From Candidatus Methanomethylophilaceae archaeon (GTDB lineage: Archaea > Thermoplasmatota > Thermoplasmata > Methanomassiliicoccales > Methanomethylophilaceae), in contig CALUHR010000013.1 in assembly GCA_944320495.1 (NCBI GenBank), positions 192,001 through 256,000 on the forward strand: DNA of 64,000 nucleotides. The letters are read 5' to 3'. A program made the translations under genes and the position numbers. Of the stretch, positions 1,585 through 51,478 are shown in pieces; the first letter of the stretch is position 1, and every line of letters begins with the position of its first letter. Under the pieces are notes generated by a model. The model searched no databases, was not told the origin of the DNA, and was given only the letters and a program-made list of their open reading frames with translations.

Positions 1585-1634
1585 GGAAAATCACCGTTCG
1601 AAGCGCGTTCGGCGCCTTTAGTGTTCACACGCGC

Positions 1635-1662
1635 ACGCGAATCGGTGTATATACACGTTTTC
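1635..1662 (-). promoter_or_regulatory. Probable BRE/TATA promoter of ilvE
   Basis: Minus strand GAAAACGTGTATATACAC, about 60 nt upstream of the ilvE ATG. Confidence 0.55.
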
Positions 1663-1668
1663 GGAGCT

Positions 1669-2700
1669 TCGCTCGCGGAGAATCGCGTCCACCGCATCGG
1701 AGAACGGGACATCCCCGCCGACGCGGAATGTGCGGCACCCCAGACGGCGACCGAACTCCATGTCGGAGTCGCTGTCGCCGACCATCCACGACCTGGACGG
1801 GTCTATGCCGTACCTGGCCATGGCGGCGAGCCCCATGCCTATCTCCGGCTTGCGGCACGAGCAGTTCTCGTCCGGCCGGTGGGGGCAGTAGAAGATGTCG
1901 TCGATGCGCCCGCCCCCGGCCTCGACGGTGCGCCGGAGCTTGGAGTGGATGGCATCGAGGGTCGCGAGGTCGAAGTAGCCGCGGTTGAGCCCGGACTGGT
2001 TGGTTATCACTATGACCAGGTATCCTGCGCGGTTGAGCCTGGCGATCGCCTCCGGGACGTCGGGGTAGACCTCGAACTTGTCCGGGTCGTCGCAGTAGGG
2101 GACGTTCCTGGCGACGGTGTCGTCCCTGTCGATGAATACGGCTCGGCTGCCGAAGAGCTCCCTCTCGACGATGCCGGCCACGATGTGGCAGGCGCAGAGG
2201 TAGCCCTCCTGGACGTGGGGGGTCTCGGTGGTGGGGATGACGACCGCGTGGTCCGCGATCTCCCTCATCTTCCCGCAGTCGCCGGTGAAGGCGATGGTCA
2301 CGCCTCCGCGGGCCTTGGCCTCCTCCATCGCGAGGATCACGTTCTTGGAGTTGCCGGATGTGGAGAGCCCGACGAGGACGTCCCCCTTCCTGCAGATCCC
2401 CTCGACCTGCCTCTTGAACACGATGTCGTAGCTGTAGTCGTTCCCGATGGCGGTCACGGGGGCGATGTTGGACAGGCACACGCCGGGGAGCGCGGGACGC
2501 TCCATCATGTACCTGCCGGAGAACTCGGCGGCGATGTGCTGCGCGTCTGCGGACGAACCGCCGTTGCCGCAGAATATGACCTGATTGCCGTTGCGGAACG
2601 CATCCCTGATGATGTCCGCAGCTTTCCTGATCTGGGCGGGATCGATCGCGGAGATCGCCGCAGCCGCCTTCCCAAGCTCCGCCGTAATCGCGTCAGTCAT
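1669..2700 (-). CDS. gmhA: Phosphoheptose isomerase (GmhA/SIS) plus heptose-bisphosphate phosphatase (GmhB/HAD-IIIA) in one frame; internal CGA at codon 186, proposed CGA stop at 1669-1671
   Basis: CGNGGSSADAQHIAAE, GLSTSGNSKNV, HVQE (GmhA); FIDRDDT, ITNQSG, YCPH..CSCRKP, VGDSDSD (GmhB). The standard-code ORF extends to 1618 through the ilvE promoter. Confidence 0.9.
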
Positions 2701-13306: not shown

Positions 13307-14659
13307 ATGAGGATGTTCGGAACCAACGGCGTGCGCGGGATAGCGAACGACAGCCTCAGCTGCGAACTGGCACTGCGCATGGGGAAGAGCATCGGGACCG
13401 TGCTCGGCCCGACGATAGCTCTCGCCTATGACACACGGACGTCGTCCCGTATGATCAGGGATGCGGTCCGTTCCGGACTCGTCTCCGTGGGCACGGACGT
13501 CATCGACCTCGGAATGGTCCCTACGCCCGCGCTCCAGCATTATGTGAAGATGCGTCCCGGGATCACCGGGGGGGTCATGATCACCGCCTCCCACAATCCT
13601 CCAGAGTACAACGGCATCAAATGCATCTCCGGCGACGGGACGGAATGCTCCCACGAGGAGGAGCAGAGGATAGAGGATGCGTATGACGGCGACATCCGGT
13701 GCGTAGGATGGGAGTCCATCGGTACAGTCCGCCACGTCCTGGATGCGGCCGAGGAGTATGTGGACTCCATCGTGTCGAAGGTCGACCGCGAATCGATCAG
13801 AGCGGCCCGCCTCACCGTCTGCGTGGACTGCGCCAACGGCGCCTCCGTGGAGACGGCGCCGATGCTCATGAGCAGACTGGGAGTCCGTGCGATCACGATC
13901 AACGGCAACCCGCAGGGCGAGTTCCCCGGCCATCCGAGCGAGCCCACGGAGGAGAACCTGGAGGACCTGAAGAGACTGGTGGTGGACACCGGTGCGGACC
14001 TCGGGATAGCCCATGACGGGGACGCGGACAGATGCGTCTTCGTGACGTCCGATGGACGGTTCGTCAGCGGGGACCTCTCCCTGGCCCTCCTGGCGAGGAA
14101 CGAGCTCTCCAGAAACGGCGGGGGCAGGGTAATGGTTACCGTCGCCACGTCCAAGGTCGTGGAGGACACCGTCGAATCGAACGGCGGAGAGACGGTGTAC
14201 ACGGCGGTCGGGTCCCCCATAGTCGCCCGCGAGATGATCTCAGGGGGAGGGGTCTTCGGCGGGGAGGAGAACGGCGGACTGATCTTCGCCGACCACCAGT
14301 ACTGCCGCGACGGCGGCATGGGAGCCGCGAGGATGCTGGAGTCCATCGCCAGGAACGGCCCCCTGTCCGAACAGGTGGACTCCCTGCCGAGATATCGCAC
14401 CATCAAGAAGGCAGTGAGATGCCCGGACTGCCTCAAGACCGAGGTCATCGAGACCGTGTGCAGGATGCACGAAGACGGCAGGATAGACCGCAGGGACGGG
14501 CTTCGCATCGATTTCGATGACGGCTGGGTCCTGATACGTCCGTCCGGAACGGAACCTAAGTTCAGGATCTACTCCGAATCCAAGGATGATGCGGTCGCCG
14601 AAGCACGCTCCGAATCGTTCGTGAGGGAGATCGAGGACATCATCGGAGAGAGAGCCCGA
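13307..14659 (+). CDS. Phosphomannomutase/phosphoglucomutase (proposed CGA stop 14657-14659; standard TAA at 14683)
   Basis: FGTNGVRG, TASHNPPEYNGIK, DGDADR, GEENGG, IRPSGTEPKFRIYSE. Confidence 0.92.
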
Positions 14660-15664
14660 TCGCTCCCTGACGACCTTCCCTAACTTCGCCTTGAGCTGCA
14701 TCACCGGCTTCACCTCGGCTGGGTCTATGCCGCGATGCTCCGCCATGTACAATGACATGTAGTCTCCGAGGATGATCGCCCGGAACATGTTCTCGAGCGC
14801 GGACTTCCCTCCGAGCCTGATGACCTTCACCGGTGCGCCGCTGACCTCGAGCTCCTCGGCGACGCCCTCCAACACCCCGGTCCCGCGGCACAGACCGTCG
14901 TCCGCACCGATCAGGAGGATGAACAGGTAGTCCTGACGATCGGTACCGGCCCAGCGGGACACCTCTGGGCATCCCAGCTCCGGAAGCGACTCGCAGAAGG
15001 CCACGAACTTGGAGTTCTCGTTGACCTGGGTCTTCCATCTGAACGCCACCGACTGCATGCTCACATCCGAGCATACGACAGGCACCTTCCCGACCAGGGC
15101 ATCCACCAGCTCATGGGCCAGCGATCCCTCCGCGAGGGCGGCATCGTCCCGGTAGTCGCGGAGCGAGGGGATGAACGCCCTGATCCTCCCGGACAGGTCC
15201 GGTCCACCTGCCGAGCGTATGACGGCCAGCGTGTAACCGATCATGTATCCGATCGCATGCCTGGGATGCATGTCCTTCGGGAGGGGGATGACCTTGTCGC
15301 CTCCGGACTCGGCGGCCTCCCTGAGCAGACCTCCCGACGTCAGCACCACGACCCTGCAGCCGCACGCCTTCGCCTGATGGTACATGTTCATCGTCTCGGC
15401 CGTGTTGCCGGAGTAGCTGGACACTATCGCGAGAGTCCGCGGGCCGACCCAGCTGGGCAGTTCCGGGTACTTCATCAGGCACAGGTACTTGGATGACTCC
15501 GCATAACAGCAATCTGCCGCGAAATCACCGCTGACGGCGGAACCACCGACTCCGCAAAGCAGGATGCTGTCGCAATCGAAGACCTCCCCGGGATCGTATG
15601 ACAATGACTTCTCGAGATCGTCGACGAAATGGTACAGCTGCTCCTTCACGGTGAGACCGGCCAT
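14660..15664 (-). CDS. Bifunctional phosphoglucose/phosphomannose isomerase family, paralog A (proposed CGA stop 14660-14662)
   Basis: CGVGGSAVSGD, SSYSGNTAET, HPR, WKTQVNENSK. 334 aa with the CGA stop; otherwise runs 444 nt antisense into the mutase gene. Confidence 0.85.
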
Positions 15665-16620
15665 CAGTACGCCTCCTCCAGAGCTTCGGCAACCATCAGT
15701 GCGAGTGCCATCGCCCTGATGTTCTTGGTCATGGAGTCGCCTGAGCCCAGGTCCGCGACGATCGCATGCCTCCCGTTCTCCTCCAGGACCTCCAACATGC
15801 ACCGCAGTATCTCCGTGACCAGGCCGCTCCTGACCTCCCCTCTGATGACCAGCAGCCTGAGCTCCGGCGCATGGACGTTCGGATCGGACCAGCCTACCAG
15901 CTCATTGTGGTCGAACTCCGGCAGCTCGCCGAAGAACGATATGTCGGACCTCGCGGATCCGATAATCCGCCTCCAGTAGCGGGAGGATGCGCGGATGTCC
16001 GATGTGCTGTATGCGGCGACTACACCGCCGGACAGCTCGTTGGCCACATCCGCGACCTGTCCCTCGAGATCGTCCCTGGATGCCTCGGCGGACCTCAGGG
16101 CGTCCCTGAGCATGAGAGACGCATCGAACAGACCGGAGGACTGCACCATCGCCGACAGCAGCCCCATGACGAACCATGGGGCCTCGGCCTCATCCACATC
16201 GGACGGTATGGGGAAGACGACACCTCCCGCATCACGACATGAGGCTGTGATCCTCCCCTCCGAGGAGATGCACACGACCTCGCAACCGCGAGACAACAGG
16301 TCATTCAGGATGCGGAGCATGGTCTCGTCGTCGCCGTCATACGATACCAGAACGGCCCTCACGCCTGGGACCACCCATCCGGGGACGCGGTTGTCACAGA
16401 TGTGTGGGACGTATACGGAAGCGGATTCGTTGGCGGCGTCCGAGATCACGTCAGCCGCGACTCCGCAGAAATCGTTGCAGAATACGCACATGCGAGCCGA
16501 TGTCCCCATGTCGACCTGCGTCTCGGCGGCCGCCTTGGCACGGTCGATGAATCCGGACGGCCAGGATGCCCTCGGCATCCCTGTGGCTGAGACTCCCCCA
16601 GCCAGGCTGTTCGTGCGCAT
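15664..16620 (-). CDS. PGI/PMI family paralog B (degenerate N-terminal SIS domain, intact ELPEFDHNE)
   Basis: GELPEFDHNELVGW C-domain motif; TGATG coupling to paralog A. Start uncertain. Confidence 0.75.
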   Translation of the reverse strand: MRTNSLAGGVSATGMPRASWPSGFIDRAKAAAETQVDMGTSARMCVFCNDFCGVAADVISDAANESASVYVPHICDNRVPGWVVPGVRAVLVSYDGDDETMLRILNDLLSRGCEVVCISSEGRITASCRDAGGVVFPIPSDVDEAEAPWFVMGLLSAMVQSSGLFDASLMLRDALRSAEASRDDLEGQVADVANELSGGVVAAYSTSDIRASSRYWRRIIGSARSDISFFGELPEFDHNELVGWSDPNVHAPELRLLVIRGEVRSGLVTEILRCMLEVLEENGRHAIVADLGSGDSMTKNIRAMALALMVAEALEEAY

Positions 16621-17765: not shown

Positions 17766-18521
17766 ATGAGCACGGATGAGAAGCTGGTGAAGGTCCGCAA
17801 GACGTCGGACTACGAGTACGGATCGTCCAAGTACATCTACACGCCTCTCAGCAGGCTTTTCACCCGCATCCTGCTGAAGACGCCAGCCACCCCCAACCAG
17901 ATCACGATCTTCTGGGGGCTCCTGATGATCCTGTGCTCGATCGCGTTCGCCTTCGGCGATCTCCTGCTCGGGGTCCTCGGAGGCATCGGCTGGGTCATCT
18001 CCTACGCCCTCGACTACACCGACGGGGACATAGCCCGCTACAAGGACATGAAGTCCAAGCGCGGCCCGTTCCAGGACCTCGTGAACCACAGGGCGACCTA
18101 CCCCCTGCTCATGTTCTGCATCGGATTCGGGGCCTACAAGATTGGAAGGACCGAGTTCTTCGGCATCGCCTTCGACCCCATGTGGTACATCGTACTCGGA
18201 TTCCTGGCCGGCATAGCCATGGTCATCATCATGGACCTCGGCGACGCCTACAACAAGGTGTATCCCGAGGGAAGCATCGACAGCGACCGCGGAAGCGCCG
18301 CCGTGGAGGGGGGTAACGTGGGGAACCGCAGGCTGTTCAAGGCCGTCATGAACTTCAACCCCCTCGTGTTCACGAACATGATGCTCCTGACGCCCGTCTT
18401 CGCCCTGATCGGTCTCACGGACGTGTTCATCATCTTCTACGGTATCTTCTATCCCCTGGCCGCGTTCGGGAGGTACGTCATACTGTATCGCAGACTGCCC
18501 GGCGTATCGAAATCGCAGTGA
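17766..18521 (+). CDS. CDP-alcohol phosphotransferase family protein
   Basis: TPNQIT and DYTDGDIARYKDMKSKRGPFQDLVNH; the last Asp of the consensus is replaced by His. Confidence 0.85.
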   Translation: MSTDEKLVKVRKTSDYEYGSSKYIYTPLSRLFTRILLKTPATPNQITIFWGLLMILCSIAFAFGDLLLGVLGGIGWVISYALDYTDGDIARYKDMKSKRGPFQDLVNHRATYPLLMFCIGFGAYKIGRTEFFGIAFDPMWYIVLGFLAGIAMVIIMDLGDAYNKVYPEGSIDSDRGSAAVEGGNVGNRRLFKAVMNFNPLVFTNMMLLTPVFALIGLTDVFIIFYGIFYPLAAFGRYVILYRRLPGVSKSQ

Positions 18522-19532
18522 TCGGAGGACGATGCATTCCCCGTACACGGCGCGGGCGGAGCCCACGTACCCGTAGATGCGGAGGTTGTCTCCCGAGAAG
18601 TCGAACACGCCACTGGGGGCATCGTAGGTGTGCCCCTGCTGATAGTCGACTATCGTCGATGTGTAGTCTAGACCGGATGCTATCGTCTGGGCCACGAAAT
18701 GGACCGTGTGGGACTGGTACTCGACGGTCATGCCGAAGTTCATGACCATGCCGTCGTAGGCGCGGTAGATGAGCGCGCAGGCATACCCATCGCTGGACTC
18801 GTTCCCGACAGAGAAGTACTCGCCTATGCCCTCGTACCTTATACCGTAGGAGTACTCATTGAACTGTATGCCCAGGGAATCCTGGACGAGGTCGTTCTGG
18901 ATGTAATCCGTACGGAGGGTGTGTCTGACGTCGTTGAAGCTGGAGTCGTCCATCCCCTCGATGCCCGTGAACAGCTCGGCATACCCCTGGATCTGCTCGA
19001 TGTCATCATCGTCTGGACCGTGGGACACGTACTTGCCCAGGCATCCGGACATGTTCATCACGGTGCCGCCGGACCTCAGCCATTCGACGAGCACGCACGA
19101 GGACGTGCCGTCGTACAGCACGTCCGAGACCGCCCCTGCGGCGATCAGGACGGCGACCGAGGAACGATCGGCATCCGGAAGGGCTTCCGCCAGTTCCTGC
19201 GAGTCGCAGAACACCATTCCCGGCCCCGAACGTATCTCGAGCTGCTCCCCCAGGCCGATGAGCATCGTCTCCTGGAGCTCCCAGTCGTTCATCGCCGCAT
19301 ATTCCGTGTCGAAATACACCAGGATCGTATCGAAATCATATCCCGCGCTGCTCTCGATGAGCGTCGTGTGGGTCTCCATGCCGTAGTTCGACGAGTACGT
19401 GTAATGGATCCCGTCCTCATCTCCCCAGGCGTCCAGGTCGCATCTGTATATGTTCGGACCGTAGGACAGGACCATGCCGACGAGCATGACGGCGACGACT
19501 GCTACAATCACTATGACATCGATGCGCTTCAT
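18522..19532 (-). CDS. Membrane-anchored extracellular protein, paralog 1 (proposed CGA stop 18522-18524)
   Basis: N-terminal hydrophobic anchor and acidic ectodomain; shares LVYxD, GAxSxxLYDG..C.L..W.R.GGTV motifs with 24447-25469; 336 aa. Confidence 0.75.
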
Positions 19533-50083: not shown

Positions 50084-50422
50084 ATGGAACAGCAGGACCA
50101 GAGACCCAGCAGACATGTCTGCCTCACACGCAGGGCGCCGCTCGGCATATCGTCGGACCCGGAGCTGGACATGCTCCAGGCCCTGGCCGACCCGGACGTG
50201 CTGACGATGGTACGCGGGCTGGCGAGAGAGGAGGCCAGGTCCCCGTTCCCCGACGGACTGTTCGGACTGGACTCGCCGAGGACCAACGCCGCGATCAGGA
50301 GGATGAGGGATGCGGGACTGATCTCCTCGCGCAGGGACGGCAACGATCACGTCTACTTCCTCAACGCCCCCAGGTTCCGCGACTTGGAGCACTTCATATC
50401 GGGACTGATCGCGAAGGACCGA
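50084..50422 (+). CDS. ArsR-like winged-helix regulator (proposed CGA stop 50420-50422)
   Basis: LQALADP, MRDAGLISSRRDGNDHVYFL. 112 aa with the CGA stop, otherwise 1.1 kb antisense through endA. Confidence 0.75.
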
Positions 50423-51478
50423 TCACGGCTTGAACCAGCGGAACTCGAGGTACTCGACCCTGTTCCTCCTGACCAAACCGAAGAGGATCTCCTTCTTCAC
50501 GCCGCCCGAGAGACGCACGGTCCTGGATATCTCCGGCCACATCCTGAGGCCGTCCTCCGTCACGGCGTGCACCAGGTAGCGCGCATGGGAGTCGTCGGGG
50601 GACGTCTGGTACACCCTGAAGTGAGTGCCGTACTTGAACCCGGTCTTGACCACGAGGCCCCTCTCACGGAGGTCGGAGTAGACCAGGTACCTGATCCTGA
50701 ACTCGTCCTGGATCCTCTCGCCGAACTCCATGAGGTCGTCGAAGGTCACAGGATTGTCGTCCTGGTCCAGGACGGTGAGCCTGCCCTTTCCCATGAGGTG
50801 TACGCTCTCGATCAGCGACAGTTGCAGGGCCTCGCTCATCGACTTGCCGTAGTAGCCGTAGTCCCTGAGGGCCTCCGAATGCCCGCGGTCGAACACGAAC
50901 ACCCTGTCCCTGACCAGACGTCCGACAGGCTTGGCGGACATGGGTTCGGGATACACCCTCCCGGACGGGTCGCGGAGATCAAGGGTGTAGTAGGTCAGGT
51001 CGCCCTCCTCGTCCACGACGCCGTAGAGCAGCTTCTTCCTCCTCTCGGAGACGTCGGAGACCTGCCTGACGAGGCCGGCGATGCCGACCGCGTTCCTCTC
51101 GGACACGGCACGGACCATGAACTCCGGACGGGAGTTGCTCATCGTCTTGCCGCGGGGGAAGACGGAGATGTCGTAGTCCCCCGACTCGATCTTGACGACG
51201 AATCCGCGGTTCCTCAGGTCGCGGTAGACCATGTACTTGATGTCGAAGCCCTCGAACTCGGCCGCGGCGCGGCAGAGAAGCTCCTCGAAATGGACGGGCT
51301 CGCCCTCGGGGGTGACCACCTCGAGCCTGCGGCACTCGGTGAGGTAGACGGCCTCCACGAGGTCAAGGTCGACCCCTCCGCCACTGCGGGGGTACCCGAA
51401 ATTACCCCTGGTGTAGAGCCTGCTGCCCTCGCTCTGCTCCCTGACCTCGACACGGTCCGCAAGAAGAATGCCCGCCAT
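50423..51478 (-). CDS. endA: tRNA-intron endonuclease (two-unit, homodimeric type)
   Basis: Two repeats with LDLVEAVYL / LSLIESVHL, VYRDLRNRG / VYSDLRERG, KTGFKYGTHFRVY..H. Confidence 0.93.
   Translation of the reverse strand: MAGILLADRVEVREQSEGSRLYTRGNFGYPRSGGGVDLDLVEAVYLTECRRLEVVTPEGEPVHFEELLCRAAAEFEGFDIKYMVYRDLRNRGFVVKIESGDYDISVFPRGKTMSNSRPEFMVRAVSERNAVGIAGLVRQVSDVSERRKKLLYGVVDEEGDLTYYTLDLRDPSGRVYPEPMSAKPVGRLVRDRVFVFDRGHSEALRDYGYYGKSMSEALQLSLIESVHLMGKGRLTVLDQDDNPVTFDDLMEFGERIQDEFRIRYLVYSDLRERGLVVKTGFKYGTHFRVYQTSPDDSHARYLVHAVTEDGLRMWPEISRTVRLSGGVKKEILFGLVRRNRVEYLEFRWFKP

Follow-up and report, generated by a model that had tools for sequence, protein, structure and literature searches.

Why should two genes that run towards each other meet at the palindrome CGATCG, with an in-frame CGA, normally an arginine codon, at the end of each? 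We examined this question in a 64,000-nt window (positions 192,001 to 256,000 of contig CALUHR010000013.1) of the 1.77 Mb, 62% GC, 14-contig genome of a gut methanogen of the Methanomethylophilaceae (Methanomassiliicoccales). An earlier note had proposed that the hexamer consists of the back-to-back CGA stops of two convergent genes, with the same geometry as a TGA/TCA junction, and that otherwise the isomerase frame would read 444 nt antisense into the mutase. Inspection of the sequence confirmed the hexamer, both reading frames and the 444-nt overlap that translation table 11 would create (Table 1). Our results support the interpretation that CGA is used here, and apparently in the genus, as a fourth stop codon, although this rests on sequence evidence and peptide release at CGA is not shown.

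Table 1. Features of the junction and related loci. Positions are those of the window unless a contig is given; C2 and C13 are contigs of the same genome, and C13 carries the window.
Position	Strand	Feature	Details
13307-14683	+	Table-11 ORF of the mutase	CGA is codon 451
13307-14659	+	Phosphoglucosamine mutase (archaeal GlmM type) gene	450 codons plus a CGA terminator
14657-14659	+	CGA acting as the stop of GlmM	Next base is T
14681-14683	+	First canonical stop (TAA) in the GlmM frame	8 codons after the CGA; could serve as a back-up stop
15802-14240	-	Table-11 ORF of the isomerase	CGA is codon 381
14660-15664	-	SIS-domain phosphoglucose/phosphomannose isomerase (PGI/PMI) gene	334 codons plus a CGA terminator; likely ATG at 15664 shares one base with the TGA of the upstream paralogue
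14660-14662	-	CGA acting as the stop of the PGI/PMI gene	Codon 335 counted from the ATG
14615-14617	-	Second in-frame CGA in the PGI/PMI frame	15 codons after the first
14240-14242	-	First canonical stop (TGA) in the PGI/PMI frame	140 codons after the CGA, antisense to GlmM
14240-14683		Overlap of the two table-11 ORFs	444 nt
15664-16578	-	Second, distant SIS-type isomerase paralogue	About 25% identity; directly upstream
18519-18524		Second abutting convergent junction, TGATCG	TGA of the + gene 17766-18521 against CGA of the - gene 18522-19532
50420-50425		Third abutting convergent junction, CGATCA	CGA of the + gene 50084-50422 against TGA of a - gene
1621-2700	-	Phosphoheptose-isomerase-like SIS domain and HAD phosphatase domain in one frame	Residues 17-140 and 199-329
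2143-2145	-	Single CGA separating these two domains	Context AGC CGA GCC
C2:85936-87165	-	aRF1 gene	Only aRF1 gene of the genome
C2:86932-86934		In-frame CGA of the aRF1 gene	Codon 78, followed by C
C13:413317-413390		tRNA-Arg(UCG) gene	A-A mismatch at 31-39

To establish where the two proteins end, we searched their translations against family profiles. The mutase has four PGM_PMM Pfam domains and matches TIGR03990, the archaeal phosphoglucosamine mutase model, over residues 1-441 (444-position profile) at 543 bits against a cut-off of 439, so that it is better named archaeal GlmM than PMM, the name used in the earlier note. Its only in-frame CGA is the proposed terminator. In the isomerase, PF10432 (bact-PGI_C) passes at 110.7 bits against 24.5, whereas TIGR02128 and NF006425 align end to end but score below their curated cut-offs (184 bits against 213.9, and 195 against 471), and we therefore regard it as a member of the SIS-domain PGI/PMI family with its exact activity unassigned. 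The profiles end at residues 374-379 of the long ORF, just before the CGA, and the remaining 140 codons have no family match. Inside the two homology-supported cores there are 0 in-frame CGA codons, compared to 40 and 26 out-of-frame CGA triplets.

We next compared the orthologous junctions, the test that the earlier note had named, using relatives drawn from 40 genomes of the order and from GTDB representative genomes. Their records are titled Methanomassiliicoccales archaeon and Methanomassiliicoccaceae archaeon UBA71, and several public assemblies carrying the locus are titled as bacteria (Bifidobacteriaceae, Bacteroides ovatus, Prevotella hominis and others), which look like mislabelled bins. 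The same convergent gene pair occurs across the genus. The junction is TGATCA with zero spacer in 8 loci (5 distinct sequences) and CGATCG with zero spacer in 2 further species (genomes G013 and G010), with flanks that differ from those in our window; mixed forms also occur, and the rest have TGA or CGA stops a few bases apart or overlapping. In one tight group of loci, two (L024 and L026) have TGA exactly where two others (L025 and L032) have CGA, at the same isomerase stop position. Mutase orthologues stop at positions 450-454 and isomerase orthologues at 334-335, with one at 342, and no orthologue conserves either extension. A maximum-likelihood tree of the two proteins, built without their last eight residues, requires at least 5 TGA/CGA changes for the isomerase stop and 3 for the mutase stop. 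An exact pattern search of metagenome contigs, allowing Y/R at the two variable bases, returned 0 hits. These results indicate that the junction descends from, or is interchangeable with, the TGATCA form of sister species; TGA to CGA is one transition and is silent under this code, and the mixed forms TGATCG and CGATCA are also stop against stop.

To assess whether the pattern extends to the whole genome, we examined long table-11 ORFs, which have no CGA over hundreds of codons and then reach a first CGA after which CGA, CGG and CGT become dense and the frame looks non-coding. When CGA was treated as a stop, 339 of 1,367 ORFs with strong GC3>GC1>GC2 signal ended in CGA, 953 in TGA, 45 in TAA and 30 in TAG. 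The next 60 codons in the same frame looked coding in 6.5% of cases after CGA, comparable to 6.7% after TGA, but in 60% after TAG. Only 7 candidate internal CGAs were found genome-wide, no more than the background seen after TGA. A simple gene caller gave 1,683 genes at 87% coding density, with 1,201 TGA, 427 CGA and 55 TAA stops; these gene-level counts depend on our own caller and on GC3-GC2 as the coding signal. Gene bodies hold 45,144 out-of-frame CGA triplets, 1,001 CGG and 1,722 CGT codons; in-frame CGA is zero there by construction of the caller, and it is the independent ORF tests that show its real scarcity. In addition, 51 CGA stops overlap the next ATG as CGATG, the usual arrangement for translational coupling inside operons. 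Within the window, 20 of 69 genes end in CGA, and for two more of these genes full-length domain models (PurE and the TM1586 nitroreductase family) end just before a CGA that is followed by empty tails of 195 and 471 codons. TAG, in contrast, behaves mostly as a sense codon, with 33 in-frame TAGs in our gene set. ARAGORN found no tRNA with a CTA anticodon.

Three other families of the order have CGA scattered through long ORFs, so they use it as a sense codon. A first survey had raised the possibility that the family represented by genome G025 shares the trait; this is rejected, as CGA is scattered through its long ORFs. Within the genus, the CGA share of stops in the stretches sampled varies from about 4% (genome G015) and 7% (G004) to 14% (G013) and 25% here.

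The abutting geometry is more than chance. Of 249 convergent pairs, 126 lie within +/-40 nt and 28 abut exactly, which is the commonest spacing (next highest, 10 and 7) and compares with about 1.6 expected per spacing (binomial p about 1e-26). These 28 junctions are 12 CGATCG, 15 TGATCG or CGATCA, and 1 TGATCA. CGA accounts for 39 of the 56 stops (70%) compared to 25% overall (odds ratio 7.3, p = 2e-12), an excess that codon bias does not explain, since 14.6 would be expected. Zero spacing is also seen in G013, G004 and G015, and sister species with fewer CGA stops show it mostly as TGATCA. We infer that zero spacing is an older, favoured arrangement, the tightest packing without overlap, and that its TGA stops have been converted to CGA more completely than others. 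Context explains part of this excess, since the CGA share among non-abutting stops followed by TCG is 46%. A HIP1-like repeat was rejected, as CGATCG occurs 692 times against 958 expected, and so was avoidance of TGATCA (614 against 584 expected). CGA stops are followed by T in 55% of cases overall, and in 43% compared to 28% for TGA at stops 15 nt or more from the next gene (p = 7e-5). This preference is also seen in G013 (64%, n = 28), but not in G004 (33%, n = 15) or in a pooled, noisier sample of relatives (31%). The CGA share also tracks the following dinucleotide (TG 52%, AA 1%), so local composition may explain part of the preference, and we do not claim a termination context.

Other comparisons suggest that CGA is a weaker stop. 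The CGA share falls from 41% in the lowest quintile of codon bias to 6% in the highest, where TGA reaches 92% (Mann-Whitney p = 2e-31), and both genes of the junction lie in the lowest quintile. A canonical stop follows CGA immediately in 6.3% of cases, compared to 2.6% after TGA (p = 7e-4). What is new here, besides the junction comparison, is this codon-bias gradient, the excess of tandem stops and the enrichment of CGA at abutting junctions.

We then examined the decoding machinery. The single in-frame CGA of the aRF1 gene, in the context GCT CGA CTN, is kept in 22 of 23 genus loci, while outgroups have CGC, CGT, CGG or AGA there and 2-4 CGA elsewhere in the gene; in genome G023, two contigs end exactly at this codon. 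Genus-specific fixed residues flank the NIKS motif of aRF1 (Q53 for Y/F/L, A56 for S, T63 for G/S/R and M65 for R/Q), and this species and genome G018 alone have GRSTELIS where all others have GRGTELIS. Whether these residues change codon recognition is inference. Among 45 tRNA genes detected, a tRNA-Arg(UCG) gene is present, and it was found in 11 of the 24 relatives of the genus searched; a BLAST search with its 74 nt found none in G008 and G015, where a pattern search gave only spurious hits. All 12 genus copies have a mismatched 31-39 pair, giving a 4-bp anticodon stem, and this species and G018 have U32/C38 where relatives have C32/A38. With this gene present and conserved in the genus, CGA can in principle still be read as Arg. 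Moreover, the first stop base would be C, and no eRF1/aRF1 accepting this base appears to be known.

Together, these results make it likely, in our view, that ribosomes on both mRNAs end at the two abutting CGA codons, and that in this genus CGA has been removed from coding sequence and serves as a terminator alongside TGA and TAA. We infer that release is carried out by the single aRF1, and that CGA is probably a weaker or tunable stop, because a tRNA-Arg(UCG) gene is retained and the aRF1 gene itself keeps one in-frame CGA. A further and more tentative possibility is that CGA is a context-tuned stop read by an altered aRF1, the residues flanking NIKS and the Gly-to-Ser change in the GRGTELIS loop being the candidate changes. 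CGA would then terminate well in some contexts, including the CGA-U created automatically at abutting junctions, and would be read through by a weakened tRNA-Arg(UCG) at CGA-C in the aRF1 mRNA, giving a feedback loop that sets the strength of the new stop. The frame that joins the SIS and HAD phosphatase domains across a single CGA, with no start codon at the beginning of the second part, is likewise a candidate for programmed CGA readthrough or a fused enzyme.

Alternatively, CGA could be an effectively unassigned, "hungry" codon at which ribosomes stall and chains are freed by a rescue or splitting pathway, so that the hexamer would mark two stall sites rather than true stop codons. The mismatched anticodon stem, the rarity of CGA in strongly codon-biased genes and the canonical stop that follows CGA immediately 2.5 times more often than it follows TGA are compatible with this view. 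However, a quarter of all genes, including the 51 operon-internal CGATG overlaps, would depend on rescue, TGA and CGA swap freely at the same orthologous position, and the conserved in-frame CGA in aRF1 makes most sense if aRF1 itself acts on CGA. We thus consider this explanation unlikely. It is very doubtful that CGA is ordinary arginine here, with eight extra residues on GlmM (ending ...GERARSLPDDLP) and a 140-residue antisense-encoded tail on PGI/PMI (...VVRERSGSLSDD...). Table 11 does give open frames and the tRNA-Arg(UCG) gene exists, but orthologues stop with TGA at the same positions, no family profile covers the tails, sequence after CGA is non-coding-like genome-wide, and in-frame CGA is missing from cores while the other rare Arg codons CGG and CGT are used. 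Equally improbable is that C-to-U editing, or a DNA-level or base-calling artefact, turns CGA into TGA, since, although the two differ by one transition and the RNA contigs near the locus cover only 13344-13586, 13972-14181 and 14128-14375 and not the hexamer, the process must know the reading frame to spare the out-of-frame CGA triplets, the same pattern occurs in many independently assembled genomes of the genus, and a DNA contig from another study spans 14285-15237 with only 6 differences, none of those inspected lying at the hexamer.

We found no published case of a CGA stop in a free-living organism, and no description of one in Methanomassiliicoccales. A preprint raises the possibility of a CGA stop in two hydrothermal-vent archaeal assemblies in which CGA is absent from recognisable domains (bioRxiv 10.64898/2026.04.02.715157), but states that its method cannot infer stops; those assemblies have about 50% GC, CGG read as Trp and no tRNA(UCG), whereas here CGG is still used, tRNA(UCG) is present and termination is supported by orthologue ends. 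Sense-to-stop codes appear to occur in organelles (NCBI tables 2, 22 and 23: AGA/AGG in vertebrate mitochondria, UCA in Scenedesmus, UUA in Thraustochytrium mitochondria), where a sense codon is likewise lost from coding sequence and found at gene ends. Here, however, the change lies in a cellular chromosome with roughly 1,700 genes, the codon starts with C, a cognate tRNA gene is kept and the codon ends a quarter of all genes. The in-frame CGA of aRF1 resembles the case of bacterial RF2, whose gene prfB probably carries an in-frame UGA, but it would need readthrough by tRNA-Arg(UCG) rather than a +1 frameshift. The reading of TAG as pyrrolysine, which probably occurs in the same order, is a change from stop to sense, the reverse of that proposed here.

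In practical terms, standard table-11 annotation of this genus gives about a quarter of its proteins false C-terminal tails, as for the isomerase here, and invents long gene overlaps. The CGATCG/TGATCA junction is a compact natural test case, with one locus, two genes and both codon states present among sister species. If CGA terminates translation here, it is a sense-to-stop change of the genetic code in a free-living cell, with a stop codon that begins with C, which bears on how release factors read the first base and on how codes evolve through ambiguous intermediates.
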